This document shows, in pieces, positions 34,203 to 51,205 of a stretch of 64,000 nt of DNA (position 1 is the stretch's first letter; every line of letters starts with the position of its first letter). Origin of the DNA: Candidatus Eiseniibacteriota bacterium (GTDB lineage: Bacteria; Eisenbacteria; RBG-16-71-46); NCBI GenBank assembly GCA_044222065.1, contig JBGAOA010000001.1, positions 1 through 64,000 on the forward strand, in the 5' to 3' direction. The notes under the pieces were generated by a model, which did no database searches, had not been told where the DNA came from, and saw only the letters and a list, made by a program, of their open reading frames with translations. The position numbers and the translations under genes were made by a program.

Positions 34203-35678
34203 TCAGTGCGGCTCGCTCGCGCGTCCTTCCCACAGCGTGACGGGCGGAATGATCCAGCGCCGCCCGTGCGCGGCCGCGGCGATCGCGCGCGCCTGCGCAG
34301 CACCGGCTCGCGTCACCTGGTCGCGCGCGACGCGCGCGCGATCCACTCCGACGCCCCACCACGCGGCGCCGCCATCCACCTCGCGCGCGAACGCGGCGGT
34401 CGTGATCCGCGCCGACACCGGGATCTCGAGGCCGCCGTCGAAGTACTCGGTGCCGCCGTCGCCGAGCAGCAGCCGATGGCGGCCCGCGGGGTCGTAGTAG
34501 AGGGCGGTGAGGATCGAGTGCGACTCGGCGTGCACCACGAGGTCGCCGGGCGCGCGCATCGCGGCGAGCCGCGCGAGCGACGCGCGCAACGCGACGCCTT
34601 CCGGGAACGGCGGCGCCTGCCAGCTCCAACGCGCGGCGAGCGCGACGAGCACGGCGGCGAGCGCGAGGCGGAGCCCTCGGAGCGGGCGGCCGTCGACGCC
34701 GGCCGCGACGAGCGCGAACCAGATCGGCGCCGCGAACAGGAACTCGTTCGGGAACGACACCGGCAGCACGCGGATCGCGAGCGGCGGCAGCAGCACGAGC
34801 GTCCACGCGATCGCGGCCGCGCGGCGGCGCGCGCGGTCGAAGAGCGGCACGAGCGCGAGGATCGCGAACGCGGGCAGGAGCGGCGTGTGACTCAGGCACA
34901 GCTTGCGGATGTAGTCCGCGATCTCGTGGGGGCGGGGGAACTTCGCGAGCGACAGCGTGCCCTCGCGCGCGAGCTGCTCGAGGAACACGGGCAGCTGGGG
35001 CAGGAAGCCGGCGAGGATCGCGAGGTGCAGGAGCAGCAGCGAGCGGCGCCGGCGCGCGTCGCCGCGCAGCGCGACGAGGCCCCACGCGAGCAGCAGCGCC
35101 TGCACGGCGAGGAACGCGTAGTGCGTGTAGAGCGCGAGCAGCGACGCGGCCACGCCCGCGATCGCGGCGCCCGCGCGGTCGTTCTCGAGCCACGCGGTCC
35201 ACGCGTCCACGACGACGAGCGCGAGCAGCCACTGCACCGGGTACATGCCGACTTCCTGTCCGTAACGAACGAGCGCGAACGCGACGGCACTGAACGCGAC
35301 CGCGAGCAGCGCCGCGCGCGTGCCGAACCAGCGCCGGAACAGCCGGAACGCGAGCGGCAGGCACGCGAGCGTCAGCGCGATGGAGAAGCCCTTGTTCCAG
35401 GCGGCGCCGTCTCCGCCGAGCCGGATCCACGCGTGGCGCACGAGGAAGGCGAGCGGCGGGTGGATGTCGCGCGAAGCCGTCGTCCACACCTCGTGCGCGG
35501 GCCGGCGCGACAGCAGCACGAAGTAGATCTCCTCGAACCAGAGCGGCGAGCGCAGCGCGAGATGGACACGCAGCGCGCCGGCGACGAGCACGAGCAGCGC
35601 GAGCGCGGCGTACACCGCGCCGCCTTCGCGCGCGCGGGCGGCGGGGGCCGCCGTCGGGCCAGCCGAGTCGGGACTCAT
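34203..35678 (-). CDS. GT39/PMT-like membrane glycosyltransferase
   Basis: LWFEE, DIHPPL, YGQEVGMY, LYTHY. Confidence 0.75.
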   Translation of the reverse strand: MSPDSAGPTAAPAARAREGGAVYAALALLVLVAGALRVHLALRSPLWFEEIYFVLLSRRPAHEVWTTASRDIHPPLAFLVRHAWIRLGGDGAAWNKGFSIALTLACLPLAFRLFRRWFGTRAALLAVAFSAVAFALVRYGQEVGMYPVQWLLALVVVDAWTAWLENDRAGAAIAGVAASLLALYTHYAFLAVQALLLAWGLVALRGDARRRRSLLLLHLAILAGFLPQLPVFLEQLAREGTLSLAKFPRPHEIADYIRKLCLSHTPLLPAFAILALVPLFDRARRRAAAIAWTLVLLPPLAIRVLPVSFPNEFLFAAPIWFALVAAGVDGRPLRGLRLALAAVLVALAARWSWQAPPFPEGVALRASLARLAAMRAPGDLVVHAESHSILTALYYDPAGRHRLLLGDGGTEYFDGGLEIPVSARITTAAFAREVDGGAAWWGVGVDRARVARDQVTRAGAAQARAIAAAAHGRRWIIPPVTLWEGRASEPH

Positions 35679-35799
35679 GCGGGGCGGAACGCTACTCCCG
35701 GGGCGTCGCGGTGTCGAAACCGCCGCGCGTGCGCACCGCTCGACGCCCGCGCGGCCGCGCCGCTATCATCCGCCGCACTTCTCGCCGCATTTCGAGGCT

Positions 35800-35924
35800 T
35801 GGACTCCGTTGGAAGACCCGAGTGCAAGGCGGCGAGGGAAAGTGGAACGAGGTGTATCCGCAGGATACTCCGCAGTGACGAGTGACCGAGCCAACGCGGC
35901 AATCGGGTCTTCCAACGGAGTCCA
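35800..35924. repeat. 125-bp ERIC/MITE-like palindromic element in the mqnC leader
   Basis: Perfect 22-bp terminal inverted repeats (35800-35821 / 35903-35924), central hairpin gtatcc-gca-ggatac, second related copy at 26454-26509. Confidence 0.75.
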
Positions 35925-35940
35925 GCCGAGGTACGTCCCC

Positions 35941-37161
35941 GTGTGGTCCCAGATCGAATCGAAAGTCGCGAACGGTGAGCGCCTCACGTCCGAGGAGGGC
36001 GTGTTCCTGCTGACCGACGCTCCGCTCACCGACCTCGGCGCGCTCGCGAACGAGATGCGCAACCGCAAGAACGACCCGAAGGTCGTGACGTACGTCATCG
36101 ACACGAATCCGAACTACACGAACGTCTGCACGGTGGACTGTCACTTCTGCGCGTTCTACCGCAAGCCGGGCGCGAACGCGTCCGACGCCTACACGCACGA
36201 CGTCGAAGGCGTCATGAAGATGATGGCGGACGCGGACCGCCTCGGCGCGACGACCGTGCTGCTGCAAGGGGGGCTCAATCCTGCGATCGCGTGGGAGTTC
36301 TATCCGGCGATCGTGCGCGAGGCGCGGCGCCGCTACCCGCACATCACCCCGCACTTCTTCTCCGCGCCCGAGATCCACCAGATGGCGGAGGTGTCGGGCC
36401 TGACGATCGAAGGTGTGCTGAAGGCGCTCTACGAGGCGGGCCAGACGACGCTGCCGGGCGGCGGCGCCGAGATCCTCGCGACCCGCGTGCGCAAGCGGAT
36501 CTCGGTGAAGAAGGGCGGACCCGACGCGTGGCTCGACGTGCACCGCGCGGCGCACCGCGTCGGCATGGTGTCCACGGCGACCATGATGTACGGCCACGTC
36601 GAGACGCCCGAGGAGATCGTCGAGCACCTCGGCTACGTGCGCGCGCTGCAGGACGAGACGCGCGGCTTCACGGCGTTCGTGCCGTGGAGCTACAAGCGCG
36701 GGAACACGCCGATGGAGTCGAAGGTGAAGCACATCGCGGGGGCCTCGATGTACCTGCGAGTGCTCGCCGCGAGCCGGCTGTTCCTCGACAACTTCGATCA
36801 CGTGCAGGCGTCGTGGTTCAGCGAGGGCAAGAAGACCGGCCAGATCGCGCTGCACTACGGCGCGGACGACTTCGGCGGCACGCTGTTCGAGGAGAACGTC
36901 CACCTCGCGACCGGGCACGTGAACAAGACCACGATCGCCGAGATCGAGACGCTGATCCGCGAGTCGGGCTACACGCCCGCGCAGCGCACGACGCGCTACG
37001 AGATCCTGCGCGTCGGCGAGGGTCCCGAGGCGCTCGCGAGCCTGAGCGCCGACGTGCCGCTGTTCGTCGAGAGCCTGCGCGAGCTGCCGGCCGAGTACCC
37101 GGACGTGATCGAAGGCGAAGAGTCCGCGCCGGCGAACGGCGGGCTCGTGATGCCGCGCTGA
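35941..37161 (+). CDS. mqnC: Cyclic dehypoxanthinyl futalosine synthase (radical SAM)
   Basis: NYTNVCTVDCHFCAFYR, LLQGG, PGGGAEIL, TATMMYGHVE, FTAFVPW, HVQASW, GADDFGG, EENV. GTG 35941 follows GAGG; GTG 35875 is an alternative start. Confidence 0.92.
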   Translation: MWSQIESKVANGERLTSEEGVFLLTDAPLTDLGALANEMRNRKNDPKVVTYVIDTNPNYTNVCTVDCHFCAFYRKPGANASDAYTHDVEGVMKMMADADRLGATTVLLQGGLNPAIAWEFYPAIVREARRRYPHITPHFFSAPEIHQMAEVSGLTIEGVLKALYEAGQTTLPGGGAEILATRVRKRISVKKGGPDAWLDVHRAAHRVGMVSTATMMYGHVETPEEIVEHLGYVRALQDETRGFTAFVPWSYKRGNTPMESKVKHIAGASMYLRVLAASRLFLDNFDHVQASWFSEGKKTGQIALHYGADDFGGTLFEENVHLATGHVNKTTIAEIETLIRESGYTPAQRTTRYEILRVGEGPEALASLSADVPLFVESLRELPAEYPDVIEGEESAPANGGLVMPR

Positions 37162-37245: not shown

Positions 37246-39462
37246 CTAGGCCGTGTGCGTCGCCGCCTGCGCCGGGACTTCGGCGGGCGCTTCGACGCGC
37301 CGACGCACCGCGGTCGTCTGCTCCTGCGCGCGCCGCACTCCGGCGAGCGCCGTGCCCAACAACGTGAGCAGCGCGCCGACCCACACGAGGTTCACGAGCG
37401 GCTTCACGCTGAAGTCGATGATCGCCGTCGGGATCGCCGCGCCGACCGAGGGCAGGAGCACCGCGATGCGCGCGTTGTCCGCATCCATGCGCGACAGCAT
37501 CAGCTTGCCGCCGCCCGGGAAGTCGGCCGGGATCGCGTGCGAGCCGTGTTCGTCGGCCGTCACCGCGGGCGACACCGTGAAACGCTCGCCGTCGCGCTCG
37601 ACGTCGATGTCGGCGTAGGCCATGAACTGCTGCGCCTCGTGGTCCATGCGGAAGCCGCGGAACGTGTAGCGCGCGCCGCCGACGTCGGTGGACTGGTTCT
37701 TCGTGAGCCACACGGGCTCGGCGTGCCCCTGCGCTTCGGTCGTGCCGACGTCCACGGGCGACACGTAGAGATCGCGCACGAGGTCGAGCGCCGGCGTGTG
37801 CATCATGCCGTCGCCGCGCGGGGACGGCATCATCTTCGGGAGCGCCGTCATGCTCCACTTGCCCTTCTCGACCTTGATCTCGAGCGCGCGCGTGTCACGG
37901 GGCAGCATCTTCGCGCCGGCATAGGTGACGCGATAGCCGAGCACGTCCTTCACCTCGCCGGCGTCGAGCTGCAGCCGCTCGGTGCGGCCGAAGCCGGTCG
38001 AGACCGCGATGCCGACCGCCATGATGGCGACGCCCGCGTGGCCGAGGTAGCCGGCGCCGTACGTCCAGCCGCGGCGGAACAGCTTCGCCGCCATCCACAC
38101 GTTGACGCCGAGCATGAGCCCGGTCGCGAACAGCAGCGCGAGCCACAGCGGATCGCGCAAGCCCGCGAAGAACGACGTCGCGAGCAGCGCGACGCCGGCG
38201 ACGAGCGCGGCCGGGAGGAACGACGTCCACGACAGTCCCTGGCGCGACGTCCAGCGCAGCGCGGGCGCGACCGCCATGAGCAGCAGGATCGCGAGCGCGA
38301 GCGGCATCGTGACGCCGTGGTAGAACTCGGGGCGCACGCTCGCGGGCTTGCCCGCGAGGCCCGTGAGCAGCGGCATCGTCGTGCCGGCCGCGACGAGCAC
38401 CGCGAGCGCGACGACCGTCATGAGGCCGAGCCACAGCGCCGACTCGCGGCTCGCGCTCACCCACTCCACCTTCTTCGGCTCGATCGCCACCCAGCGGAAG
38501 GCGAGCAGCGCGCCGCCGATGAACGTGAAGCCGAGCAGGAACGTCGTCAGCGTTGGCCCGAGGCCCGTGTCCGCGAACGAGTGCACCGAGAAGTCCGACA
38601 GCACGCCGCTGCGCGTCAGGTACGTGCCGCCGACCACCGTCAGCCAGCCGAGTGTGGCGAGCAGCAGGTTCGTGCGCGTCATCGCGCCGAGCGTGCGCTG
38701 GATCAGCAGGCCGTGCAGCATCGCGACCGCCAGCAGCCACGGAACGAGCGACGCGTTCTCGACGGGATCCCAACCCCAGTAGCCACCCCACCCCAGCACC
38801 TTGTACGCCCAGATCCCGCCGAGGACGATCCCCGTCCCGAGGCTCACCACCGCGAACAGCGACCACGGCCAGACGCGCTTGTTCCACTCGTCGTACTCGC
38901 CACGCACGAGCGCCGCGGCACCGAGCGCGAACGGCACGAGCATCGCCGCGTAGCCCACGAACAGGACCGGCGGATGCGCGACCATCCACGGGTCCTCGAG
39001 CAGCGGATTGAGTCCCGCGCCGTCCGCCGGCACGACCGGCGTCGTGACGAACGGGGACTTCGCCATGAGCAGCGCCATCATGAAGAGCTGCGAGAGCCCG
39101 ACGAACGTCATCGCCGGAGCGCTGAGGCGTCCGGGCTGAAGGAACAGGAACACGCCGACGAGCGACCCGAGCGTCGCCCACAGCAGGATGCTGCCTTCCT
39201 GCCCGGCCCACAGCGCCGCGAGCGTGAGCGCCGGAGAGAGCGCGCGCGAACTGTTGTGCGCGACGTACTCGAATTCGAAGCGATGATTGAGGAAATAGCC
39301 TGCGAGCAGTCCGAGCGCGGCGAGGAGCGACATCGAATGGAGCGCGAAGACGATGTTGCCCGCCGAAGAGCGCTCGCGACCACGGAACGTCGTGGCGTAG
39401 ATCCCGGTCGCAGCGAGCGCGAGCAGGAATGCGAATTTGAGGAGCAGGTCCCCGGTGAACAT
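37246..39462 (-). CDS. ccmF: Cytochrome c heme lyase CcmF/NrfE family
   Basis: WAGQEGSILLW, GLNPLL, HPPVLFVGY, WGGYWGWDPVENASLVPW, LTRSGVL, SVHSF, KPLVNLVW; GGAGG RBS. Confidence 0.93.
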   Translation of the reverse strand: MFTGDLLLKFAFLLALAATGIYATTFRGRERSSAGNIVFALHSMSLLAALGLLAGYFLNHRFEFEYVAHNSSRALSPALTLAALWAGQEGSILLWATLGSLVGVFLFLQPGRLSAPAMTFVGLSQLFMMALLMAKSPFVTTPVVPADGAGLNPLLEDPWMVAHPPVLFVGYAAMLVPFALGAAALVRGEYDEWNKRVWPWSLFAVVSLGTGIVLGGIWAYKVLGWGGYWGWDPVENASLVPWLLAVAMLHGLLIQRTLGAMTRTNLLLATLGWLTVVGGTYLTRSGVLSDFSVHSFADTGLGPTLTTFLLGFTFIGGALLAFRWVAIEPKKVEWVSASRESALWLGLMTVVALAVLVAAGTTMPLLTGLAGKPASVRPEFYHGVTMPLALAILLLMAVAPALRWTSRQGLSWTSFLPAALVAGVALLATSFFAGLRDPLWLALLFATGLMLGVNVWMAAKLFRRGWTYGAGYLGHAGVAIMAVGIAVSTGFGRTERLQLDAGEVKDVLGYRVTYAGAKMLPRDTRALEIKVEKGKWSMTALPKMMPSPRGDGMMHTPALDLVRDLYVSPVDVGTTEAQGHAEPVWLTKNQSTDVGGARYTFRGFRMDHEAQQFMAYADIDVERDGERFTVSPAVTADEHGSHAIPADFPGGGKLMLSRMDADNARIAVLLPSVGAAIPTAIIDFSVKPLVNLVWVGALLTLLGTALAGVRRAQEQTTAVRRRVEAPAEVPAQAATHTA

Positions 39463-39955
39463 GAGAGTGACCTCCGCGAGTGTCGGTGACAGTACGTCGC
39501 GGCCGTTCACTGCGAGATTCGTGCCCTCCAGCCGTGCACGACGCCTCGTCGCGGGCGTCGGGCGCGCGATGCCCTCGCGCCGGACGCCGTGACGCGGGGC
39601 GCACACGGACACGCCGGTCACGCGTTCGCGATCCACTAGCGCGGTGAAACGCGTGGGCTTGCGGCGCGGGCGCGCCCGGCCTCGACGCCCGCGCGCGGGC
39701 GAATGTTCGAGAGCGCAACCGCACGACGCGAGACCCGGATCTCGGATCGCAGACCGGCGAGACCCGATCACCGGCTGCACTCGACTGCGAGAGCGCCGCG
39801 CTCGGCGCGGCAGGAGCCGCTGTCAGGCTGGCAGGTCGGCCCGGGTCGGACCGTTCGCCGACCGACTGCCATTCAGGCAACTTCAAATTACGCTTCTCGT
39901 TGAGAGACAGCGGCTTCGGCCATCCCTGCGTAATCCTACGGATGTTTGTGAAGAA

Positions 39956-39970
39956 TGGCACAAGCGTTGC
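39956..39970 (+). promoter_or_regulatory. Sigma54 (RpoN) -24/-12 promoter
   Basis: TGGCAC-aagcg-TTGC, matching the TGGCAC-N5-TTGC consensus, 93 bp upstream of the NHL gene start. Confidence 0.8.
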
Positions 39971-40063
39971 CGTCTGCGTGCTCGGTGCGGTGGATGTCCG
40001 CATGCGCGCCATGGAAGGCGCGGGTTGCCACCCGATTGAGTCGACTTCCGAGGAGCACTGCAG

Positions 40064-41119
40064 GTGGTTGGTCACGAAGCTCAGATCCGCAGCGGACACA
40101 CGGTCCGCGACGCTCGAACGCCGGAAGCGGCCGCCGGGCGGGGTCGAGCGCACACCTCGAAGCTCCTCGCGCCCGCGACGCTCGTCTTCGCTCTCACGCT
40201 CGCCGCCTTCGCTCGCGAGGCTTCCGCGGCCGAGTACGGGGAGCCGGCGATCGACTCGTCGCACGTCATGGCGATGGCCCACCGCGGCCAGTCGTTCGTG
40301 CGGCCGCGGGCGATCGTCGTGGACGCCGCCCACCAGGAGATCGCGGTCGCGAACACGGGCCTCGGGCGCATCGAGTACTTCGACTTCCGCACCTGGCCGC
40401 GCGGCTACTTCACTCACGTCGTCCCCGACCCGAACGGTCGCGGGCGGGCGGGCGAGCCGTTCGCGCTCGCGCTCGATGGGCAGGACCGGCTCTTCATCTC
40501 CGACCTCTACGTGTCCTACGTGGACGTCGTGGACTTCCGCGGGCGCTCGCTCGCGCACCTGACGCTGCCCGCGCCGGACGACAGCGCCTCGGGCGAGACG
40601 GGACCGGGAGCGCTCGCGATCGCGCCCGATGGCCGGATCCTCGTCGCCTCGCGCGGCAAGCACGGGCGCATCCACGTCTTCGACTCCGAACTGCGGCACG
40701 TGAAGACGTTCGGAACCGCCGGCAAGGACCCGGGCGAGCTCTCGGTCATCACGTCGCTCGCCGTGGATGCGGGTGGACGGACGTACGTCGCGTGCGGCGC
40801 GACGCAATTCGCCGTGCAGATCTTCGACGCCGACGGCCGCTACCTCTCGGGCTTCGGCGTCCACGAAATCGGCCCGGGCAACTTCTCGTTCCCCTCGGCG
40901 GTGACGCTGACGGCAGACGGGAGGGTCTGGGTCGCTGATGCCATAAGACAGCTCGTTCAGGTCTTCGACCCGAATGGGAAGTACCTCGGGGCAGTGGGTG
41001 GAAGCGGGAACAAGCCTGGCGAGTTCACCGAGCCAAGCGCTCTGGCCGGCGATGGACACGGCATCCTGGCGCTGACCGAAAAATCGGGCGGTCGGTTCCA
41101 GGTGATGTGGACGCGCTAG
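40064..41119 (+). CDS. Exported NHL-repeat beta-propeller protein
   Basis: Repeats P-x2-(I/L/V)-(A/V)-x-D...(I/V)-x-V-(A/S)-D...VQ(I/V)FD; FGxxGxxPG spacers; hydrophobic signal segment. Start codon uncertain. Confidence 0.85.
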   Translation: MVGHEAQIRSGHTVRDARTPEAAAGRGRAHTSKLLAPATLVFALTLAAFAREASAAEYGEPAIDSSHVMAMAHRGQSFVRPRAIVVDAAHQEIAVANTGLGRIEYFDFRTWPRGYFTHVVPDPNGRGRAGEPFALALDGQDRLFISDLYVSYVDVVDFRGRSLAHLTLPAPDDSASGETGPGALAIAPDGRILVASRGKHGRIHVFDSELRHVKTFGTAGKDPGELSVITSLAVDAGGRTYVACGATQFAVQIFDADGRYLSGFGVHEIGPGNFSFPSAVTLTADGRVWVADAIRQLVQVFDPNGKYLGAVGGSGNKPGEFTEPSALAGDGHGILALTEKSGGRFQVMWTR

Positions 41120-41238
41120 CGGAGATCTCCGTCCGACGGGACGGCACCTGGGAGGTGATAAAGACCCCATCCGCAGTACCTGACTACATCGGGCCCGATT
41201 CACTCATACACGCTTCAATCTTCTAGAGGAGTTTCCCA

Positions 41239-42279
41239 ATGAGACGCCTGATCGTTCTCCTGACCGTCGTGCTGACGATGGGTGTGGGGGCGTCTGCTCT
41301 GGCGGGAGATTTCCACGTCGGTACGAACCTGGTCTGCAGTGACTGCCACATCGCGCACTACAGCCAGACTCACAGCTACTCCGGCAGTGGAACCGTGTTC
41401 CCGCCTCTCGGCGCCGGCGGTCCGTTCACCAACCTGCTCCGTGACGAAGAGGTGAAGATGTGCCTCGCCTGCCACGACGGGCAGTCGTGGGCGCCGGACG
41501 TCTTCGGTGCCAGCGCGACCAACAACCGTCGTCTCGCGGGTGGTCTGAACGCCGCCGCGGGGCACGGACTCACCAATGACGCCGGTTACGACGAGATCGA
41601 CGGCCACACGATGTTCTCGACGGCGATGCCTCCGGGCGGCACCGGAACCGCGTACGTTCCGGGCGGCGAGGGGCTCATCTGCACGAACTGCCACGCTCAG
41701 CACGGTTCGGCCTCGCAGTACCGCAACCTGCTCAACCGCGGGATCTTCGCGGGTGACACGCTGAACTACGCGATCGGCACGAACGACCTGACGAAGGCCG
41801 TGTTCGAGCGCAGCGCGGCTTCGTACGTCGAGACGGACGTCGACTTCAACGAGCCGAATCCGACGAACAGTCACTACGGCGCCTGGTGCCAGAACTGCCA
41901 CGTGGACTTCCACGGCTCCGGCGGCGCGGCGAACATGGGTGGCCAGTCGGGCGGCGTCACCGCGGCCAACACCAACCCGTGGAAGCGTCACCCCGTCGCG
42001 GACGTCAACATCGGCACGCCGGGCGCGACGTTCATCAGCAGTCTCGCGCGCTTCAATGGCCTCACGAATCGCGTGAAGGTGATGGACTCGCAGGGTCTGT
42101 GGAACGGCACGACCGCAGACAACACCGTCACTCCGTCCTGCATGAGCTGCCACAAGGCTCACGGCAACAAGAACACGTTCGGTCTGATCTTCATGATCGG
42201 TAGCGGAACGCCGACGGAAGACGGCGACGGTGGTGTGTACAAGGACCTGTGCCGTCAGTGCCACGTGCAGGGCGCGTAG
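41239..42279 (+). CDS. OmcS-like hexaheme c-type cytochrome (candidate nanowire subunit)
   Basis: Signal peptide; six CxxCH (CSDCH, CLACH, CTNCH, CQNCH, CMSCH, CRQCH); FH-x6-CxxCH-x2-H, GH...PGG...L-x-CxxCHxxHG...YR, WCxNCHxDxH...RHP, CxSCHxAH and C-terminal LCxxCH, in the order I recall for Geobacter OmcS. Confidence 0.85.
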   Translation: MRRLIVLLTVVLTMGVGASALAGDFHVGTNLVCSDCHIAHYSQTHSYSGSGTVFPPLGAGGPFTNLLRDEEVKMCLACHDGQSWAPDVFGASATNNRRLAGGLNAAAGHGLTNDAGYDEIDGHTMFSTAMPPGGTGTAYVPGGEGLICTNCHAQHGSASQYRNLLNRGIFAGDTLNYAIGTNDLTKAVFERSAASYVETDVDFNEPNPTNSHYGAWCQNCHVDFHGSGGAANMGGQSGGVTAANTNPWKRHPVADVNIGTPGATFISSLARFNGLTNRVKVMDSQGLWNGTTADNTVTPSCMSCHKAHGNKNTFGLIFMIGSGTPTEDGDGGVYKDLCRQCHVQGA

Positions 42280-42336
42280 CTCGCGCACCGGCTTCGTGAG
42301 CTGATCGGTTTCGAGAAGTCGAAGCACGTCACCGAA

Positions 42337-42362
42337 GGGTGCGGGTCATTCGATCCGCACCC
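42337..42362 (+). other. GC-rich stem-loop downstream of the OmcS-like gene (mRNA stabiliser or partial terminator)
   Basis: gggtgcgggtc-attc-gatccgcaccc, no U-tract. Confidence 0.5.
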
Positions 42363-42389
42363 GACGGTGCCGAAGGGGCGGAGGGGAGC

Positions 42390-43835
42390 ATGAACGAGCG
42401 CAGACAGCCGGGCCGCGACCGGCCGGGTCCGAACGCGCCCGTGATGCGGCTCGCCGCCTTCGCGCTGCTCGGTGGCGCCGTGATCCTGCTGTGCGCCGCC
42501 GCCCCGAAGTTCCGCGCGCCGCGCTCGGCGAAGGCGATCCAGGAACTGATGGCCGACGGACCGCACGCCGCCGATTGCGACCCCTGCCACTCCGCGCACG
42601 GCGAGGGCGCGACGCCGCAGGAGAACCTGCTGCTCGGCCCGAACGACAACAACCTGTGCCTCGACTGCCACACGGACCCGTGGACGAACGGCAGTTTCGC
42701 GGGCGCGCCGCTCTACGCCGGTTCGGCGCACGGCGCGGGCACGAACAACACGTGGCCCGGCCCGGATCCGCCCGCGCGGCTCGAGCCCGGCGCCGGCGGC
42801 AAGTGCGTCAACTGCCACGACCCGCACGGCTGGACCGACACGAACGGCCGCATCCCGCTGCTCGCGCTCCAGCGCGAAGAGAAGCTGTGCCTCACCTGCC
42901 ACGACGGTGCGCCGGCGACGACGCAGGTGATGGCGGACTTGCTCAAGCCCTTCCGGCACCCGACCACGGACTTCACCGGACGCCACACGGGACCGGGCGA
43001 GATCGCGCCGACCGACTACGGTCGCTCGCCGCTGAACCGGCGCCACGCCGAGTGCGAGGACTGTCACAACCCGCACGTCTCGCGCGCCGACGCGCCGGGC
43101 GGCCCGTCCGGCAGCGACGCGTCGCTCACGACGCTCGGCACGAGCCGCGTGATTCCGCTCAACGGCATCTCGGGGAGCGTGCCGCTCTACACGTTCGTGC
43201 CGGCCTCCGACACGCTCACGGGACCGGTCACGGAGTACCAGTTGTGCTTCAAGTGCCACAGCTCGTGGACCACGCAGCCCTCGGGACAGACCGACTTCGG
43301 GCGCGTGCTCAATCCCGCGAATCCCTCGTTCCACCCGGTCGAAGACCTCGGCAGGAATCCCGGCATCGCACCCGGCGCGTTCACGAGCGGCTGGTCGGCG
43401 GCCTCGCTCACGCGCTGCGGCGACTGCCACGGCTCCGACTTCGGCCTCACGAGCGGCCCGCACGGTTCGATCTACCCGGGCCTGCTCAAGGCGCCCTACG
43501 ACCCGTCGCCGCTCGAGCGCTCGATGGGCTCGGACGAACTGTGCTTCCGCTGCCACAGTCACGAGGTGTACGCGGACCACAACGCGCCGTCGTCGGTCCT
43601 CGAGGCGTCGCGATTCAATCCGCCCCGCGGCGAGGAGGGCCACGCGGAACACGTCGGCAAGGAGCAGATCCCGTGCGGCGCGTGCCACGCGACGCACGGC
43701 TCGACCACGCTGCCGTTCCTGCTCGTGACCGGGCGCAACCCCGGCATCAACTCGTACACGCGCACCGCGTCGGGGGGCACCTGCGCTCCGACCTGCCACG
43801 ACTCCGAGTCGTACACGGTGAACTATGCGCGCTGA
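42390..43835 (+). CDS. Multiheme c-type cytochrome (9 CxxCH + 1 CxxxCH)
   Basis: CDPCH, CLDCH, CVNCH, CLTCH, CEDCH, CFKCH, CGDCH, CFRCH, CGACH and CAPTCH; N-terminal hydrophobic segment. Confidence 0.9.
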   Translation: MNERRQPGRDRPGPNAPVMRLAAFALLGGAVILLCAAAPKFRAPRSAKAIQELMADGPHAADCDPCHSAHGEGATPQENLLLGPNDNNLCLDCHTDPWTNGSFAGAPLYAGSAHGAGTNNTWPGPDPPARLEPGAGGKCVNCHDPHGWTDTNGRIPLLALQREEKLCLTCHDGAPATTQVMADLLKPFRHPTTDFTGRHTGPGEIAPTDYGRSPLNRRHAECEDCHNPHVSRADAPGGPSGSDASLTTLGTSRVIPLNGISGSVPLYTFVPASDTLTGPVTEYQLCFKCHSSWTTQPSGQTDFGRVLNPANPSFHPVEDLGRNPGIAPGAFTSGWSAASLTRCGDCHGSDFGLTSGPHGSIYPGLLKAPYDPSPLERSMGSDELCFRCHSHEVYADHNAPSSVLEASRFNPPRGEEGHAEHVGKEQIPCGACHATHGSTTLPFLLVTGRNPGINSYTRTASGGTCAPTCHDSESYTVNYAR

Positions 43836-45537
43836 GGTCCGCGCCCGCGCGCTGCGGATCGCGGCGCTCGCGTTCACGGCGCTCGCCGCGTTCGCTCACG
43901 ACGTCCGCGCGCAGTACGTGACGGGCTACCTCAAGGGCCAGTTCCAGGTGTTCGAGGACCAGGCGCTCGTTCCGAACGGCGACGGCACGTTCCGCACCGA
44001 CTGGAAGCGCACGGAGCGCTGGACGCAGACGATCGAACTGCAGCACGTCGCGCAGCCCCGTTCCGACCTGCGCGTGATGTCGAACTTCCGCTACACCGAT
44101 CTCTCGTACTCGAAGCTGCCCGACGCGAGCCGCTCGCCGCAGGGGAGCGTCCAGGTGACGCACCCGTGGGCGAGCCTGTTCGCCGCGTATCGGCCGTCCA
44201 CGGTGACGGGCGGCCTCGGCGCCACGGGCGTGAGCGCGGGCGACTCCGCGCGCGCCGGCGCGATCACGGCGCGATCGCAGGAGACGATGCTGCTCGGGCA
44301 GATCGCGCCTCCGAACCTGCCGCGGCTCGACGTCTCGTGGAACCGCCGCCATCGGAACGCCGACGTGCTCTCGCCCGAGGAGGCGGGCGTCAACCGCAAC
44401 GCGCGCCTGTCGTGGACGCGCGGCGCGCTGTCGAGCTACGCCTCGCTCGGCGACCAGTCGATCGACCACCCGGCCCAGAACACGCGCGGGACGACGCAGC
44501 GCACGGGCGGCGCGGGTGCGGCGCTCCACCTCACGCCGACGCGGCAGACCGCGATGGACCTGCAGTACGACTTCGCCGACGCTCGCAGCGGGAACGCGAC
44601 GCTCACCGCCGGCTCGTCGCGCTCCCACAACGCTTCGTTCAACGGCACGCTGCAGCAGCGCGCCGACATGGCCTGGAACGCGAACTGGATGTTCCGCCGC
44701 TCGCAGGCGCGCGGTCCGCGCACCACGACGCTCGACGACCACGAGGCCGCGCTCAACTGGTCGTTCGATCCGCGCGGCCCGCTGCGCCTGCTCGCCGCCG
44801 GCGGCACCCGCACCGCGCGCACCGTCGCGGGCAGCGGGCTCTCGGAGTACGCCTCGGCCGTCGCGTCGCTCGACGGCGACGTGCGCCCGGGCTGGCGCGG
44901 CACCGCGACCGCCTCGCACGTCACGAACTGGGATCCCGGTCACGGCACCTACTCCGTGGACGCGGGCCGCATCGGCTCGCGTCTGCGGCTCGCGCGCGGC
45001 CTCGAAGCGAACGTGGACGCGTCGGTGACCGCGAACGGCGACACCGGCGTGCGCGACTCGCGCGTCGTGAGCGACGCCTCCGGGCGGCTGCGCGCGACGC
45101 CGCTGCGCAGCCTCAACGTCGGGCTGTCGGCCCGCATCTATCGTTCGGGCCCGACGCTCGCCGACGGAAACTCGCGCGCGCGCTCGATCCTGTGGGACGT
45201 GCGGTGGCGGGTCGTGCCGACGCTCGAGCTGACCGGTTCGAGCTCGATCACCGGCGTGCTGCCGAACGACCGGCCGCGCAACACGACGCGGCTCGCCGGC
45301 GCGCGCTGGAATCCGTTCGCGCGCGTGCAGCTCGCGGCCGACTGGTCGAAGAGCGACCAGTCGCGCACCGACAGCAGCGCGCAGCCGGTGAGCGGGCGCG
45401 AGATCGCATCCGCGCACCTGCTCGCGTTACTCTCCCGCTCGCTCCAACTCGATGCGTCGGGGAGCATCGCGGATCGCGGCACCGCGCGCGAAAATCGTCA
45501 GATGAACGTTTCGTTGACCTGGGCCCTCGGGAGATGA
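43825..45537 (+). CDS. Putative outer-membrane beta-barrel protein
   Basis: Signal peptide, alternating amphipathic beta-strands throughout, C-terminal VSLTW strand, no cysteine. Confidence 0.75.
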   Translation: MRAEVRARALRIAALAFTALAAFAHDVRAQYVTGYLKGQFQVFEDQALVPNGDGTFRTDWKRTERWTQTIELQHVAQPRSDLRVMSNFRYTDLSYSKLPDASRSPQGSVQVTHPWASLFAAYRPSTVTGGLGATGVSAGDSARAGAITARSQETMLLGQIAPPNLPRLDVSWNRRHRNADVLSPEEAGVNRNARLSWTRGALSSYASLGDQSIDHPAQNTRGTTQRTGGAGAALHLTPTRQTAMDLQYDFADARSGNATLTAGSSRSHNASFNGTLQQRADMAWNANWMFRRSQARGPRTTTLDDHEAALNWSFDPRGPLRLLAAGGTRTARTVAGSGLSEYASAVASLDGDVRPGWRGTATASHVTNWDPGHGTYSVDAGRIGSRLRLARGLEANVDASVTANGDTGVRDSRVVSDASGRLRATPLRSLNVGLSARIYRSGPTLADGNSRARSILWDVRWRVVPTLELTGSSSITGVLPNDRPRNTTRLAGARWNPFARVQLAADWSKSDQSRTDSSAQPVSGREIASAHLLALLSRSLQLDASGSIADRGTARENRQMNVSLTWALGR

Positions 45538-46136
45538 CCATGTCCGCAGCGCTGCTCCGACTCGCGCGACTCGGCGGCGCGACGCTCGCGCTCGCGACGC
45601 TTGCCTCGTGCGGGGCGTCCCCGCGGCTGTTCGTGAACAAGCAGGCCGATCTCGGTTACTACAAGAAGATCGCGGTAGTCCCGTTCGCGAACCTCGCGCA
45701 GGAGCCGAACGCGGGCGAGCGAGTGACGCGGGCGTTCATGACCGAACTCGTGATCGCCGAGCGCTTCCAGGTCGTGGAGCCCGGGGAGTTCTACGAGCGG
45801 CTCGACCGCATCGGCGGCGTGCCCGACGCGCAGGGGCACGCCGATCCGCAGAAGCTCGTCGACGCCGCGACGGCCGCGCAGGCGAATGCGATCATCCGCG
45901 GCGCCGTGACCGAGTACTCGCTCCAGCGCAACGGCTCCGACGAGTTCCCGCTCGTGACGTTCGAAGCCGAGATGCTCGACGTCGCCACGAAGCAGACGGT
46001 CTGGCGCATCACCGTGACCGAGAAGGGCAAGGGCCGCGTGCCGCTCGTCGGCGGCATGGGCGAGCGCAGCTTCGGCGCCGTCACGCAGCAGGCGTGCAAG
46101 CGCGCGGTCGCGGTCCTGAGGCGGGAGGCGTTTTGA
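45534..46136 (+). CDS. Lipoprotein, CsgG/HfaB/GNA1162-like fold
   Basis: Lipobox LASC; KIAVVPFANL, FQVVEPGE, IIRGAVTEY, MLDVATKQTVW. Confidence 0.75.
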   Translation: MTMSAALLRLARLGGATLALATLASCGASPRLFVNKQADLGYYKKIAVVPFANLAQEPNAGERVTRAFMTELVIAERFQVVEPGEFYERLDRIGGVPDAQGHADPQKLVDAATAAQANAIIRGAVTEYSLQRNGSDEFPLVTFEAEMLDVATKQTVWRITVTEKGKGRVPLVGGMGERSFGAVTQQACKRAVAVLRREAF

Positions 46137-46759
46137 GTCCCCGCGCCCCGATCCGGCCCGTGCGCGGCGCCGCGCTCGCGCTCGGCGCCGCGCTCCTGCT
46201 CGGCGGCTGCGCCGCGAGCGTCCCGCCGCCGATGCCCGTCGGCGCGCTCGCGAACCTGCCGCGCGTCGCGATGATGCCGCTCGAGAACCTGTCGGGACGC
46301 CCCGAGGCGACCGAGCCCGTGACGCGGATCTTCCTCGGCGCCCTCGGCGAGACGCGGCAGTGCCAGACGATCGAGCCCGGCGACGTCGAGGGCGTGTTCA
46401 CCGTGCTGCGCATCCGCGACGCGACCGGACTGACCTCGGACCGGGTGCCCGAGGTTGCATCCCGGCTCGGGGCGCGCTATCTCCTCGCCGGCACGCTGCT
46501 CGAGTACGGGTCGGTGCGCTCGCCGGACGGGGACGTGCCGACCGTCGGCGTGTCGCTGCGGCTCATCGACGGGAAGAACGCGCGCGTCGTGTGGAGCGCG
46601 ATGCGCGTGCGTTCGGGAGAGGATCGCGAAACGATGTTCGGGTGGGGCCGCGTGAGGAGCGTGGATCAGCTCGCCGATCGCATCGCGCGCGAGCTGCTCC
46701 GGGATTTCCGGTTGCCGGCGGAAGGGGATTCCGCGGCAGTGGGAGGGGGAGGACGATGA
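46133..46759 (+). CDS. Lipoprotein, CsgG/HfaB/GNA1162-like fold (paralog of the upstream gene)
   Basis: Lipobox LGGC; RVAMMPLENL, IEPGDV, LLAGTLLEY, LRLIDGKNARVVW; TTGA overlap. Confidence 0.75.
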   Translation: MSPRAPIRPVRGAALALGAALLLGGCAASVPPPMPVGALANLPRVAMMPLENLSGRPEATEPVTRIFLGALGETRQCQTIEPGDVEGVFTVLRIRDATGLTSDRVPEVASRLGARYLLAGTLLEYGSVRSPDGDVPTVGVSLRLIDGKNARVVWSAMRVRSGEDRETMFGWGRVRSVDQLADRIARELLRDFRLPAEGDSAAVGGGGR

Positions 46760-47286
46760 AGGGACGAACGGGAAGCGCGATGGGTTTGGCGGTGGCGTTC
46801 GCGATCGCGACGGCCGCGTGGGCGCACGGCGCCGCGCCGGCCGCGCCGCCGAAGGGCGCGCCCTCCGCGGCGAACTCGCCCGCGGGCGCGCCGCTCAAGT
46901 TGAAGACGGTGTCGCTGATGATCGGTCATCGCGCGTTCACCGACTTCCGCGACGACGTGTCGGTGCGCCCGCACACGCTGTTCCGCGTCGGCGACACCGA
47001 GTACTCCGCGAAGGTGGTCGAGTTCCAGCCCGACTTCGCCATGGACGTGAAGAAGCACAAGATCACCTCGCGCTCGAACGAGCCGAAGAACCCGGCGGTG
47101 AAGATCGTCGTGTGGAAGAACGGCGCGGCGGACGACACGTCGTGGGCGTTCCTCAACATGCCGCCGCACTTCATGCGCAAGTCCATGCTCGCGTTCCGGC
47201 TCGTGAAGCTCGAGTTCGAGAACGGCCGCGTGATCGAGGCTCCGAAGGACACGACGGCGGTCCGGACCGGGAGCGCCCATAAATGA
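46756..47286 (+). CDS. Exported protein, DUF2155-like
   Basis: Signal peptide (AWA); FQPDFAMD...ITSRSNEPKNPAV...WAF; ATGA overlaps on both sides. Confidence 0.6.
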   Translation: MKGRTGSAMGLAVAFAIATAAWAHGAAPAAPPKGAPSAANSPAGAPLKLKTVSLMIGHRAFTDFRDDVSVRPHTLFRVGDTEYSAKVVEFQPDFAMDVKKHKITSRSNEPKNPAVKIVVWKNGAADDTSWAFLNMPPHFMRKSMLAFRLVKLEFENGRVIEAPKDTTAVRTGSAHK

Positions 47287-50200
47287 ACCGCGCTCCGCGC
47301 CGCGTCCTCCGCTTCGCCGCCCTCGCGCTGCTCGCGCTCGCGGCGTTCACGCTCGTGCCCTCGGCCACGGCGTTCGCGAAGCCGAAGGGACAGGCGCGCA
47401 GCTGTTACGACTGCCACACCGAATCGAAGAAGGCGTACGCGAAGAAGTTCGTGCACGCGCCCGTCGCGAAGGTGAAGTGCGAAGCGTGCCACCTGAGCCA
47501 CGGGTTCCAGCAGAAGCTCGTTCTCGTGAAGCCGGCCGAGCAGCTGTGCTTCGACTGCCACGCGGACCTGCAGAAGCGTCCGGCGCCGAAGTTCCCGCAC
47601 GCGGCGTACGCGAAGGGCGAGTGCTACGGCTGTCACGATTCCCACGCGAGCGACACGCCGCACCTCGTGCGCGACGGCGGCCCGGCCGCGTCGTGCTTCA
47701 AGTGCCACGAGGCGACGGCGAAAGAGACGAAGCTGGCCGTCCAGCACGCGCCGTTCCTCAAGGGCGCGTGCGGCGATTGCCACGCGCCGCACGGCGGCGC
47801 CGAGGCGAAGCTGCTCACGGCGGCGCCCGACGCGCTGTGCGCGAAGTGCCACCCGGCCGCAGCCGTGGACGCGAAGCACACGAAGGTGCAGCGCGGCGGA
47901 CTCGCGTGCCTCGACTGCCACGCGGCGCACGCCTCGAGCGCTCCGAAGCTCGCGCGCGCCGGAGCGCACGCGCCGGTCGCCGAGGGCGACTGCGCCTCGT
48001 GTCACGTGATGGAAGCGGGCAAGGCGGGCAAGAAGCTCGTCGACAAGGTCCCGGCGCTCTGCCTCTCGTGCCACGACGACTTCGCGAACCTCGCGCAGCG
48101 CAAGTTCCCGCACGATCCGGCGGCCGAGGGCGACTGCCTCTCGTGCCACGACCCGCATCGCGGCGGCCCCGACGGCAAGCTGCTCAAGGCGTCGCAGAAC
48201 AAGCTGTGCGCCGAGTGCCACTCGGACACGATGGACGAGACGAAGCGCCCCGCGGTCCACAAGGCGTTCGCGCAGGGCGAGTGCTCCTCGTGCCACAACG
48301 TGCACGGCTCCTCGAACGAGCACCTCGCGAAGACGCCCGACGGCGCGATGTGCGCGACGTGCCACACGAAGGTCGCCGAGAAGATCGCGGCGCCGAAGGG
48401 CGTGCATTCGCCGGCCGGCAAGAAGGACTGCCTGCGCTGCCACACGCCGCACGCCGGCAAGCAGAACGCGCTGCTCGTCCAGGACGAGCGCACGCTGTGC
48501 CTGACCTGCCATGCGAGCACCGCGCGCAAGGTCGCCGGCAAGGGCGCGCATCCGCCCTTCAACGGCGGCAACTGCACCGCGTGCCACGATCCGCACCAGT
48601 CGAACCAGGCGAAGCTGCAGCGCGTGCCGACCGCCGAGCTGTGCGGCCGCTGCCATCCGGGCGTCGAGCGCCAGCTCAAGGCCGAGCACACGCACGACCC
48701 GGCGAAGCAGGGCGACTGCCTGTCGTGCCACGGCGCGCACGGCGGCGAGGGCAAGGGATTGCTGATTTCGAAGACGGCGACGCTGTGCGCCGACTGCCAC
48801 GACGACATCGCGAAGAAGGCGGCGGGGCCGGGCGGACACACGGCGGCGGCGACCGGAAAGTGCATCGCCTGCCACGAACCGCACGGCGGCGCGAAGCCGA
48901 AGCTGCTCAAGGCGAGCGGCGGCGCGCTGTGCAAGAGCTGTCACGCCGGCGTCGGCCAGGAAGGCGACGCGAAGCACGCGCCGGTGGAAGAGGGCGACTG
49001 CCTCACGTGCCACGATCCGCACGGCGGAGTCGCCGCGCCCGCGCTCAAGAAGCCGCCCGCGACGCTGTGCCTCGAGTGCCACGACACGGCCGATGCCGAC
49101 ATGAAGACGAAGCACCAGAACGGCGACCTCTCGGGCGGCCGCTGTCTGTCGTGCCACACGCCGCACGCGTCCAAGTCGCCCGGGCTGATCGGCGCGAACG
49201 CGCATCCGGGGTTCGCCGACAAGAACTGCACGAAGTGCCACGGCCCCGGCGCGCCGGCGGCGAAGAACCTGATCGCGGCGCCCGAGGCGCTGTGCGTGCG
49301 CTGCCACGACCAGGCGAAGCCGAAGGCCGAGGGCGCGCGCGTGCACGACCCCGTCACGAAGGGCCGCTGCGTGGTGTGCCACACGCCGCACGCGTCCGAC
49401 CGCAAGGGCCTCGTCACCGCGCCGCAGGAGCGGCTGTGCGCGACGTGCCACGCGACGGTCGCGAAGGACGCGGCGATGTCCCACGGGCACGCGCCGGTCG
49501 CCGACGGCCAGTGCGCGTCGTGCCACGATCCGCACCAGTCGCCGTGGCGCGGCCTCGTGAAGAAGAAGCCGTCGGACCTGTGCGCCGACTGCCACAAGGA
49601 CCTCGCGAAGCGCATCGCCGAAGGCGTGCCGCACGCGCCCGTCGGCCGCGGCATGTGCCTGAGCTGCCACGCGCCGCACGGCTCGGACAAGCCGGGCATG
49701 GTGCGCAAGGAAGGCGCTGCGCTGTGCTCGGGCTGCCACGATCCCAAGGGCGCGAAGCTGATCGCGAAGCACCCCGGGATGGCGATGGAGACGACGAAGT
49801 GCACGAGCTGCCACGATCCGCACGTGCAGGGCAAGAACCGGACGGGGCTCATCCGCCCGTTCCCGCACCTGCCGTTCGCGCGCGGCGAGTGCACGTCGTG
49901 TCACACGGCGAAGGGCGCGAAGACGCTCGTGCTCGACGAGAAGGACCTGTGCGTGAAGTGCCACGAGGCCTCGAAGAACTTCGCCTCGAAGCCGTTCCCG
50001 CACGCGGCCGTCACGTCGGGCGAGCGCTGCATGAGCTGCCACGAGCCGCACGCGGGTGGTGCGAAGGGGGTCCTCAAGCGCTCACCCGAGAAGCTGTGCT
50101 TCGACTGCCACGACCGTTCGGCCTTCAAGGGCTCGAAGCGCCACGAGGCGCTCGACGACGGCTGCAACGAGTGTCACGCGCCGCACGGCGGCGAAGGCCC

Positions 50201-50444
50201 CGGGCTGCTGAAGACGAAGACCGAGCGCGAGACCTGCGCGACGTGTCACACCGACCTGTCGAAGCACTACCACCCGACGCAGAGCGACAAGCCCGATCCG
50301 CGCACGGGACGTCCGATGACGTGCTCGAGCTGCCACCGCTCGCACGCCGCGGACTTCGACGGCCTGCTGCAGTTCGATCCGAAGCGCGAGCTGTGCGTGC
50401 AGTGCCACGATCCGTCCATGGCGCCGCCGCCGAAGAAGAAGTAG
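47283..50444 (+). CDS. Giant multiheme cytochrome c, 42 CxxCH (doubled-CxxCH repeats)
   Basis: 42 CxxCH counted by hand in 1053 aa; repeat unit H-x-P-x3-G-x-CxxCH-x2-H-x(n)-L-CxxCH; signal peptide. Confidence 0.93.
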   Translation: MNRAPRRVLRFAALALLALAAFTLVPSATAFAKPKGQARSCYDCHTESKKAYAKKFVHAPVAKVKCEACHLSHGFQQKLVLVKPAEQLCFDCHADLQKRPAPKFPHAAYAKGECYGCHDSHASDTPHLVRDGGPAASCFKCHEATAKETKLAVQHAPFLKGACGDCHAPHGGAEAKLLTAAPDALCAKCHPAAAVDAKHTKVQRGGLACLDCHAAHASSAPKLARAGAHAPVAEGDCASCHVMEAGKAGKKLVDKVPALCLSCHDDFANLAQRKFPHDPAAEGDCLSCHDPHRGGPDGKLLKASQNKLCAECHSDTMDETKRPAVHKAFAQGECSSCHNVHGSSNEHLAKTPDGAMCATCHTKVAEKIAAPKGVHSPAGKKDCLRCHTPHAGKQNALLVQDERTLCLTCHASTARKVAGKGAHPPFNGGNCTACHDPHQSNQAKLQRVPTAELCGRCHPGVERQLKAEHTHDPAKQGDCLSCHGAHGGEGKGLLISKTATLCADCHDDIAKKAAGPGGHTAAATGKCIACHEPHGGAKPKLLKASGGALCKSCHAGVGQEGDAKHAPVEEGDCLTCHDPHGGVAAPALKKPPATLCLECHDTADADMKTKHQNGDLSGGRCLSCHTPHASKSPGLIGANAHPGFADKNCTKCHGPGAPAAKNLIAAPEALCVRCHDQAKPKAEGARVHDPVTKGRCVVCHTPHASDRKGLVTAPQERLCATCHATVAKDAAMSHGHAPVADGQCASCHDPHQSPWRGLVKKKPSDLCADCHKDLAKRIAEGVPHAPVGRGMCLSCHAPHGSDKPGMVRKEGAALCSGCHDPKGAKLIAKHPGMAMETTKCTSCHDPHVQGKNRTGLIRPFPHLPFARGECTSCHTAKGAKTLVLDEKDLCVKCHEASKNFASKPFPHAAVTSGERCMSCHEPHAGGAKGVLKRSPEKLCFDCHDRSAFKGSKRHEALDDGCNECHAPHGGEGPGLLKTKTERETCATCHTDLSKHYHPTQSDKPDPRTGRPMTCSSCHRSHAADFDGLLQFDPKRELCVQCHDPSMAPPPKKK

Positions 50445-50464
50445 TTCGCCGTCGCTCTCGCCGT

Positions 50465-50498
50465 CGCGCCGCGCGGACCTTCGGGACCGCGCGGCGCG
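50465..50498 (+). terminator. cUUCGg hairpin ending the cytochrome operon
   Basis: cgcgccgcgcgg-a-cc-ttcg-gg-a-ccgcgcggcgcg; no U-tract. Confidence 0.5.
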
Positions 50499-50710
50499 CC
50501 CGTTCGAGGCGCGCGGCGCGGTCCCGCGACCGGTCCGGCGCTCGGACCGGGCCGGAGCGGCCGTTCACCGCCCTGCGACACCCCGACTGAATTCTCGATC
50601 CGTGGCGCTAAACCCGCGACTTTCCGCTGGGATCGGCCGGCGGCGGGGCCTAAACTCGTTCGCACTTTCCGGACAGAGACCGGAACTTCACGAACCGCAG
50701 GAGGGTCCCC

Positions 50711-51202
50711 ATGCGCCTCGTTTCTCCCCGCTCACTGCTTCTCGCCTCCGCCTGCCTTCTCGTGACGGCCTCCGTCGCGAGCGCGTGCCCGAATTCGAAG
50801 GCCGCCGCCACGAAGTCCGCGGCGTGCGCCGCGAAGGCCACGCAGACCGCCGCCGTCGCTCCGGTGCCGAACGTGATCGTGCCCGGGCTCTGGGCCTACC
50901 TCGATCCCGAGACCGGAACCCTGACGGGTTCCGTGACGGACCTCGTGGCGCCGAGCGACCTCGTGACCCCGCCGACGACGCTCGCGCTTCCCGAAGTGCG
51001 GCTTCCCGACGGGTCGTACATGGTCGACCTGCAGGGTCAGTTCATGGAGAACGTCGTGATGCACGTCGATCCGTTCGGCATTCGCAGCTTCGTGTGCGGC
51101 CGCGGCGTCAACGTGAACACGCCGGTCGCCGCGCCGAAGGCCCAGGCCCTCGTGCGCATGCCGTCCACCCTGGAGCCGGTGCCCGCGCCGGTGGAGGAGT
51201 AA
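50711..51202 (+). CDS. Small exported hypothetical protein
   Basis: Signal peptide; AYLDPETG...LPDGSYMVDLQGQF; 3 bp from the downstream protease gene. Confidence 0.7.
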   Translation: MRLVSPRSLLLASACLLVTASVASACPNSKAAATKSAACAAKATQTAAVAPVPNVIVPGLWAYLDPETGTLTGSVTDLVAPSDLVTPPTTLALPEVRLPDGSYMVDLQGQFMENVVMHVDPFGIRSFVCGRGVNVNTPVAAPKAQALVRMPSTLEPVPAPVEE

Positions 51203-51205
51203 CCC

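Follow-up and report, generated by a model that had tools for sequence, protein, structure and literature searches.

The first 64,000 nucleotides (nt) of contig C89 (JBGAOA010000001.1) in the genome of a Candidatus Eiseniibacteriota bacterium (GCA_044222065.1, our G000; 4.2 Mb, 94% complete), a stretch referred to here as the window and with a G+C content of 71%, carry a nine-gene locus built around a hexaheme cytochrome, which profile and model comparisons place as a compact member of the OmcS family with the OmcS fold. The locus probably represents a derived, streamlined form of the osc system of Geobacter, one that would export the hexaheme and polymerise it head to tail via an EFG-type channel, fed by a 42-heme and a 10-heme cytochrome. 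A preliminary description, made from the letters of the window alone, had pointed out the gene run, a divergent ccmF, a sigma54 site and about 58 heme motifs, and these observations hold. The open reading frames were confirmed, with ccmF divergent and the other eight genes co-oriented (Table 1), and the three cytochromes together carry 58 motifs, with 6 in the hexaheme, 9 CxxCH and a single CxxxCH (CAPTCH) in the 10-heme protein, and 42 in the large cytochrome. By chance, 2000 residue shuffles of these three proteins gave means of 0.02, 0.05, and 0.56 CxxCH, with maxima of 1, 2, and 5, respectively.

Recognition of the hexaheme as an OmcS relative needs a profile or a structure, since a single-sequence phmmer search of the PDB returned nothing relevant and no match to OmcS. 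A family profile built from 104 of 120 homologues listed (of 771 found) gave OmcS (6EF8) as its only significant PDB match, at E 1.5e-7, and aligned with the OmcS profile of canonical loci at hhalign 99.5%. These canonical loci, our osc reference, are 34 metagenome loci found with the OmcS motif, not the G. sulfurreducens Osc proteins themselves; one of them has a hexaheme that matches 6EF8 over its full length (E 7.5e-193), and their gene order and sizes repeat the Geobacter table described below. For an AlphaFold2 model of the hexaheme (predicted local distance difference test, pLDDT, 78.7), Foldseek ranked 6EF8 first at E 7.9e-4 with a template modelling (TM) score of 0.37, and VIA-align against 48,161 chains returned 6EF8 with a Z of 11.2 over 253 aligned residues and a root-mean-square deviation of 4.1, the runner-up being OmcE with a Z of 3.4. 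The structural similarity to OmcS proposed in the preliminary description was therefore borne out by both the profile and the model.

The hexaheme shares with OmcS (PDB 6EF8/6NEF) six CxxCH motifs in the same order, an N-terminal FH-x6-CxxCHxxH motif, and a conserved set of distal histidines. When 13 compact and 10 canonical OmcS sequences were aligned, the six CxxCH and H26, H40, H123, H155, and H308 were invariant; both groups also have the RHP/HP motif that contains H251, but the alignment does not line it up. H40, which aligns with OmcS His16 and was identical in 23/23 of these sequences, was also kept in all 104 close and in 97 of 101 distant six-heme relatives. His16 is reported to be the polymerisation ligand of OmcS, binding heme V of the next monomer (PMC13319180), and one of the 12 axial histidines of OmcS is described as supplied by the neighbouring subunit (Filman et al., PMC6584659). 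The two proteins differ in length (~322 vs 407 mature residues), share 15-21% identity, and are further distinguished by two additional conserved histidines, H45 and H225, in the hexaheme. In a quick tree, the compact family formed its own clade apart from canonical OmcS (supports 98 and 99); the nine rows of that tree named 'hex2' belong to the family related to the 10-heme protein, and their placement is not trusted. Elsewhere in the genome, two stand-alone seven-heme relatives of the hexaheme (C45:41398-42747 and C78:22254-23300) keep the H-x6-CxxCHxxH start, and no osc-type neighbours were seen beside them.

Table 1. Features of the cytochrome locus, in coordinates of the window.
Feature	Coordinates	Strand	Basis
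CcmF-type heme lyase, second copy tied to the locus	37246..39462	-	PF01578 E 7e-29, PF16327 E 9e-21
sigma54 -24/-12 promoter site, TGGCAC-N5-TTGC	39956..39970	+	strict consensus match
NHL beta-propeller, GSU2505-position homologue	40064..41119	+	PF01436; hhalign 99.8%; start codon uncertain
compact OmcS-family hexaheme, 346 aa, predicted filament subunit	41239..42279	+	profile, structure, His alignment
10-heme cytochrome of a separate family, omcT/oscC position; possible adaptor	42390..43835	+	hhalign
predicted outer-membrane beta-barrel, OscE-position homologue	43825..45537	+	hhalign, HMM, Atlas neighbours
PelC-like lipoprotein A, OscF-position homologue	45534..46136	+	hhalign 99.7%; PDB profile matches
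PelC-like lipoprotein B, single-domain counterpart of the two-domain OscG-position lipoprotein	46133..46759	+	hhalign, HMM
small exported protein, stand-alone ResB (CcsB)-derived periplasmic domain	46756..47286	+	family profile, Atlas neighbours
42-heme cytochrome, apparent OscI (26) + OscJ (16) fusion	47283..50444	+	motif counts, motif spacing

The order in G. sulfurreducens is given as GSU2505, omcS, omcT, GSU2502, GSU2501, a YVTN propeller, GSU2499 of ~725 amino acids (aa), lipoproteins of 199 and 392 aa, GSU2496 (572 aa), a 26-heme and a 16-heme cytochrome, and an NHL gene (PMC3495685, supplement). PMC13194489 equates oscC with GSU2501, oscI with GSU2495, and oscJ with GSU2494, and reports a role in folding for OscH, in secretion for OscE/F/G, and in wire morphology for OscD; the five genes that lie between oscC and oscI presumably carry the letters D to H. 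Like this cluster (GSU2505-GSU2493), our locus has a gene at the propeller position, an OmcS, a further cytochrome, a barrel, two lipoproteins, and a large multiheme cytochrome. Lipoprotein A is 198-200 aa long against 199 aa for GSU2498, and there is a link to sigma54 in both, GSU2506 being a sigma54-dependent regulator.

The homology to osc-type components suggested in the preliminary description was found for the NHL protein, the barrel, both lipoproteins, and the large cytochrome, all of which match genes of canonical OmcS loci. The NHL protein aligned with its canonical counterparts at hhalign 99.8% over 275 columns, a score to which generic NHL similarity adds. The barrel aligned with the OscE-position profile at 97.5% (E 6e-12, 530 columns), and a hidden Markov model (HMM) of its family matched 8/8 canonical barrels with E from 1e-12 to 4e-20, the reverse search being weak (E 6e-5); at 570 aa it is shorter than the ~725-aa OscE-position protein. 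Its Atlas neighbours include clusters of outer-membrane proteins, and it had no significant relative in a profile search of the PDB and no match in the family library. Both lipoproteins carry lipoboxes (LASC and LGGC). Lipoprotein A matched the OscF-position profile at 99.7%, and lipoprotein B matched the F-type profile at 99.5% and the G-type at 99.2%, with its family HMM reaching E 5e-37 to 3e-42 on canonical G proteins and 2e-26 to 9e-30 on F proteins. In the hhalign grid of 72 profile pairs, pairs of unrelated classes stayed below 3%. By these profile comparisons, the NHL protein, barrel, and lipoproteins are one-to-one counterparts of canonical OmcS-locus genes.

The best PDB matches of the lipoprotein A profile were 5T11/5T10 (E 7e-12) and PelC 9H80 (E 1e-8). 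In PelBC, a ring of lipoproteins lies under an outer-membrane barrel, and the PelC relatives of lipoprotein A suggest, by analogy, a similar ring beneath the barrel of our locus. As for PelBC (PelC PDB 9H80; related 5T0Z/5T10/5T11), PelC-fold lipoproteins here adjoin a gene for an outer-membrane barrel, but the locus has two different lipoproteins, its cargo would be a cytochrome, and its barrel has no PDB relative at the sequence level.

The term 'complete' in the preliminary description could not be upheld, because the locus encodes no counterpart of the OscD YVTN propeller (GSU3586) or of the 572-aa peptidyl-prolyl isomerase (PPIase) found at the OscH position. Among 79 related genome loci, taken from the best 80 of 122 confirmed stretches, an OscD-type YVTN propeller with its N-terminal domain was absent from 78 and present in L099, with L052 giving only a weak NHL cross-match to the OscD profile. 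The genome itself likewise gave matches to the propeller part only, and across 206 genomes of the phylum the OscD profile produced propeller-part matches and none of full length among the 150 listed of 262. The propeller of the locus corresponds, on profile evidence, to GSU2505 and not to OscD. The OscH-position PPIase had no match in the locus and was present in 1/79 related loci, again L099; unlinked PPIases in the genome (best E 2.8e-15, partial) could act in trans. Further differences from osc are the lack of omcT, GSU2502, and the downstream NHL gene, a second lipoprotein of half the size, a barrel ~150 aa shorter, the fusion of I and J, and the addition of a ResB-derived domain, a 10-heme cytochrome of another family, and a divergent ccmF. 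Our locus would work like osc but lacks two of its features, and it is not a complete osc cluster. The Planctomycetota locus L099 (1295-15971) bridges the Geobacter and Eisenbacteria layouts: it combines OmcS genes of the compact clade with a canonical YVTN propeller, a PPIase, a two-domain lipoprotein, and separate 26- and 16-heme genes.

The two further cytochromes have different relationships to osc. The 10-heme protein aligned with a second hexaheme that more distant loci have at the equivalent position (hhalign 99.7%, 268 columns) and gave only partial matches to OmcS/OscC-type profiles, from which it does not appear to be an OscC orthologue. It scored 48 bits against the DmsE/MtrA family TIGR03508, for which the cut-off is 192.2, and its profile had no significant PDB relative; its model was poor (pLDDT 49), and the fold search matched the N-terminal helix only. 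Unlike the MtrCAB/DmsEF porin-cytochrome conduit, the locus therefore has no decaheme of the DmsE/MtrA family and no barrel with a family match. The 42-heme cytochrome, by contrast, looks like a fusion of OscI (26) and OscJ (16). GSU2495 has 26 CxxCH and GSU2494 has 16, a sum of 42, and exactly 42 motifs were counted in 43/45 complete large cytochromes of related loci. In L099, adjacent 26- and 16-heme genes have motif spacing that matches both parts of the 42-heme protein. Three of four separate 16-heme proteins scored best on hemes 27-42, with small margins, and the corresponding register test with 26-heme proteins was uninformative.

The small exported protein has 176 aa and a signal peptide and occupies the position of the canonical PPIase-type chaperone. 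Pfam searches with it and its relatives (41 members) assigned no family (best E 0.018), and its profile had no significant PDB relative and no hhalign match to the H-position PPIase or to any other canonical-locus profile. We identify it as a stand-alone ResB-derived domain because the weaker matches of its family profile were full-length ResB proteins in 4/4 cases examined, aligned over an internal stretch; DUF2155 and ResB clusters are among its Atlas structure neighbours. It is like ResB/CcsB of System II in this internal match and unlike it in standing alone at 176 aa, behind a signal peptide, while the genome gave no ResB family match and has Ccm. The profile matched 71/206 genomes of the phylum, with strong matches largely in the same genomes as the hexaheme. 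The idea that the small protein is the C-terminal part of CcmF was rejected, as hhalign gave no match.

The preliminary description had also contrasted System I maturation here with System II in Geobacter, and gene content agrees with this. The genome has CcmE, CcmC, and two CcmF and no match to the ResB family, whereas ResB/ResC genes and no CcmF are listed in the G. sulfurreducens annotation; from these genes, the host is a user of cytochrome c maturation System I. Contig C58 carries the housekeeping ccm genes, with CcmC, CcmE, and the second CcmF, and CcmB was recognised by eye from its sequence. The ccmF of the locus, with a likely ATG start at 39462 (the longest frame begins at 39780), encodes an intact protein that keeps the WGGYWGWDPVEN (WWD-type) motif and the HPP, MLHG, SVHS, and GHAG histidines. 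In other genomes of the phylum (L134-L137), some families carry full ResB genes, two of those checked with ResC alongside, so both maturation systems occur in the phylum. Twelve related loci (L021, L022, L029, L031-L034, L036, L044, L046, L059, and L080) have a divergent ccmF without the catalytic N-terminal half, reduced to a C-terminal remnant of 407-459 aa; a reading of such partial matches as ResC was rejected for this reason. A sigma54 motif was found in 0/12 of the loci with a remnant, compared with 11/13 of those with a fuller ccmF, a group that includes an internally deleted copy in L026 and one truncated at the contig end in L027. The remnant loci are kin, so the loss of ccmF together with absence of the sigma54 motif may be one event.

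The window has no strict sigma54 match besides the site upstream of the NHL gene, and the whole 4.2-Mb genome, which also has rpoN, has 9. A strict site lay within 650 bp upstream of the NHL gene in 15/66 related loci with enough flank, these loci being kin and not independent. A promoter scan found no sigma70 promoter, and terminator-like sites numbered 2, fewer than in shuffles. The overlap of all genes from the 10-heme cytochrome onward, as described earlier, stands for four junctions (11, 4, 4, and 4 nt), whereas that between the barrel and lipoprotein A is a 4-nt overlap only with the ATG at 45534 and a 2-nt gap with the ATG at 45540. GC-rich hairpins follow the stop codons of the hexaheme (42278-42345, -28 kcal/mol) and the 42-heme gene (50445-50560, -79 kcal/mol), both without a shuffle control, and neither was called by the terminator scan.

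The full eight-gene order was present in 39 of the 55 loci with enough flank. Titles of the 79 related loci comprised 31 Ca. Eisenbacteria, 10 Zixibacteria, and further Krumholzibacteriia, Latescibacterota, Ignavibacteria, Armatimonadetes, Gemmatimonadota, and Planctomycetota, with none from Desulfobacterota. These titles, together with Eisenbacteria as the nearest named neighbours in the tree, agree with the earlier assignment to an Eisenbacteria-like lineage. The hexaheme profile matched 64/206 genomes of the phylum at E<=1e-20, two of them only partially, and a tblastn search of plasmids gave no match. Eight loci, mostly of Zixibacteria and Ignavibacteria (L063, L064, L067, L068, L079, L082, L087, and L096), have many of the same genes in rearranged order, and some of these carry additional six- or 12-heme cytochromes. 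Our literature search found no description of either OmcS or an osc cluster for Eisenbacteria; the paper of Shen et al. 2025 (Cell Chem Biol 32:239), whose title calls the osc machinery widespread, may with its supplements already cover these lineages. Homologues are named in Geobacter, Geoalkalibacter, and Anaeromyxobacter (PMC10954620), and Eisenbacteria are listed among taxa with iron-cycling genes (PMC8478452).

Sequencing runs with DNA of the host were labelled sludge, activated sludge, bioreactor, and biofilm, and six of them were RNA runs. In four of these six, from three studies, contigs of the RNA libraries covered the hexaheme gene mostly or fully with 0-6 differences, and one contig of 1285 nt was identical to 41053-42337; DNA carry-over is possible in such contigs, their depth cannot rank genes, and uncovered parts are not evidence of silence. 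The end of this contig (42337) lies close to the hairpin at 42278-42345.

Sequence shows which components the locus has and what they are homologous to, and that heme ligands and gene order are conserved. From this we propose the following model, in which polymerisation, the export route, the chaperone roles, and the direction of electron flow are what we infer. The operon would be driven by the sigma54 promoter, and the apo-cytochromes, once exported by Sec, would receive heme from the adjacent CcmF acting with CcmBCE, whose genes lie elsewhere. In the most speculative step, the ResB-derived protein and the NHL propeller may handle apo- or monomeric cytochromes, in place of OscH and OscD. The barrel, set over a ring of the two PelC-like lipoproteins, would pass and anchor the subunits by analogy with PelBC. 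His40, like His16 of OmcS, would bind heme 5 of the adjoining subunit and so join the subunits head to tail. The 42-heme and 10-heme cytochromes would carry electrons through the periplasm as far as the base of the wire.

Several points weigh against this model, and some of them would suit a non-polymerising conduit, in which a short, fixed chain of the hexaheme and the 10-heme protein sits within or on the barrel, is supplied by the 42-heme periplasmic chain, and functions like a porin-cytochrome complex. Neither OscD nor the OscH-position foldase is encoded in the locus. The subunit, ~85 aa shorter than OmcS and only 15-21% identical to it, with a Foldseek TM of 0.37, has also diverged and forms its own clade with support 98 in the quick tree. 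The His16-type CxxCHxxH motif also occurs in OscC-type paralogues, and we know of no demonstration that these polymerise. Such a conduit nevertheless seems unlikely to us, as His40 is kept in 97/101 distant relatives, the genome already has a separate 10-heme cytochrome beside a barrel-like gene on contig C35, and the retained OscEFG module is the one reported to secrete OmcS (PMC13194489).

Two other points weigh against the osc-type model. The RNA-library contigs could include DNA, and even Geobacter is reported to grow on anodes and to reduce Fe(III) oxide without OmcS wires (PMC13194489). The latter would fit a second alternative, in which filaments are made and serve mainly to exchange electrons between species or take them up, to store charge, or to adhere within sludge flocs and biofilms, not in mineral respiration. 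The bioreactor, biofilm, activated sludge, and sludge labels are consistent with such a role, and bundled OmcE wires have been proposed to act in biofilm formation (bioRxiv 10.1101/2025.10.22.684050). We consider this quite improbable as the main role, given that the near-invariant count of 42 hemes (43/45) fits a maintained conduction path better than adhesion alone; its assembly mechanism is that of the favoured osc-type model, and the purpose alone differs. It is very improbable that the barrel and PelC-like lipoproteins export a polysaccharide beside unrelated cytochromes, as might be thought from PelC among the best PDB relatives of lipoprotein A and from a weakly matched PMT_2-like membrane glycosyltransferase gene at 34203-35678, since these genes overlap those of the cytochromes, the same module adjoins OmcS in canonical loci, and no polysaccharide synthesis gene lies within the run.

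The osc-type model gives the locus its wider interest, although it is not a new kind of system, osc having already been published as widespread. Secretion and assembly of OmcS wires are described as still speculative in PMC12307469 and bioRxiv 10.1101/2025.10.22.684050. Several phyla retain the NHL protein, the barrel, both lipoproteins, and the 26+16-heme chain while dropping OscD and OscH, which points to a conserved core, and a natural version without these two proteins gives direct tests of the osc model. Probable nanowire-type electron exchange is also extended to ~30% of the genomes of an uncultured phylum. A bolder proposal, which we hold tentatively and at rather less than an even chance, is that Eisenbacteria, Zixibacteria, Krumholzibacteria, Latescibacterota, Ignavibacteria, and others make OmcS-type nanowires from a smaller, self-sufficient machine without OscD/OscH, in which a System II-derived ResB domain and a dedicated System I CcmF act as the apo-cytochrome chaperone and a single 42-heme chain bridges the periplasm, and that these wires are made in activated-sludge communities. 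If true, this would define a minimal nanowire assembly pathway and a Ccm-based kit that could be moved into laboratory hosts using Ccm.

Other regions of the genome are also rich in cytochromes. Contigs C35 (27765-55713) and C85 (17939-22517) encode many further multiheme proteins, with 13, 19, 18, 9, 34, and 20 motifs, and the 10-heme protein beside a barrel-like gene, which resemble, by eye, a DmsE/MtrA-MtrB pair. In the window, the locus is flanked by menaquinone genes of the futalosine pathway at 35677-37161 and 55025-55873 (MqnC-like, VitK2_biosynth family), an MqnC-like gene being nearby in only 2/79 related loci. Downstream of the 42-heme gene, 50711-53161 encodes a protein with a post-PEP-CTERM-1 domain and, after it, a PA-domain protein that has a FlgD-Ig tail, and additional FlgD-Ig tails occur at 6247-7380 and 28582-30846. 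The region is also flanked by multi-pass membrane proteins at 34203-35678 and 53249-54958, one with the weak PMT_2 match and one without a family.

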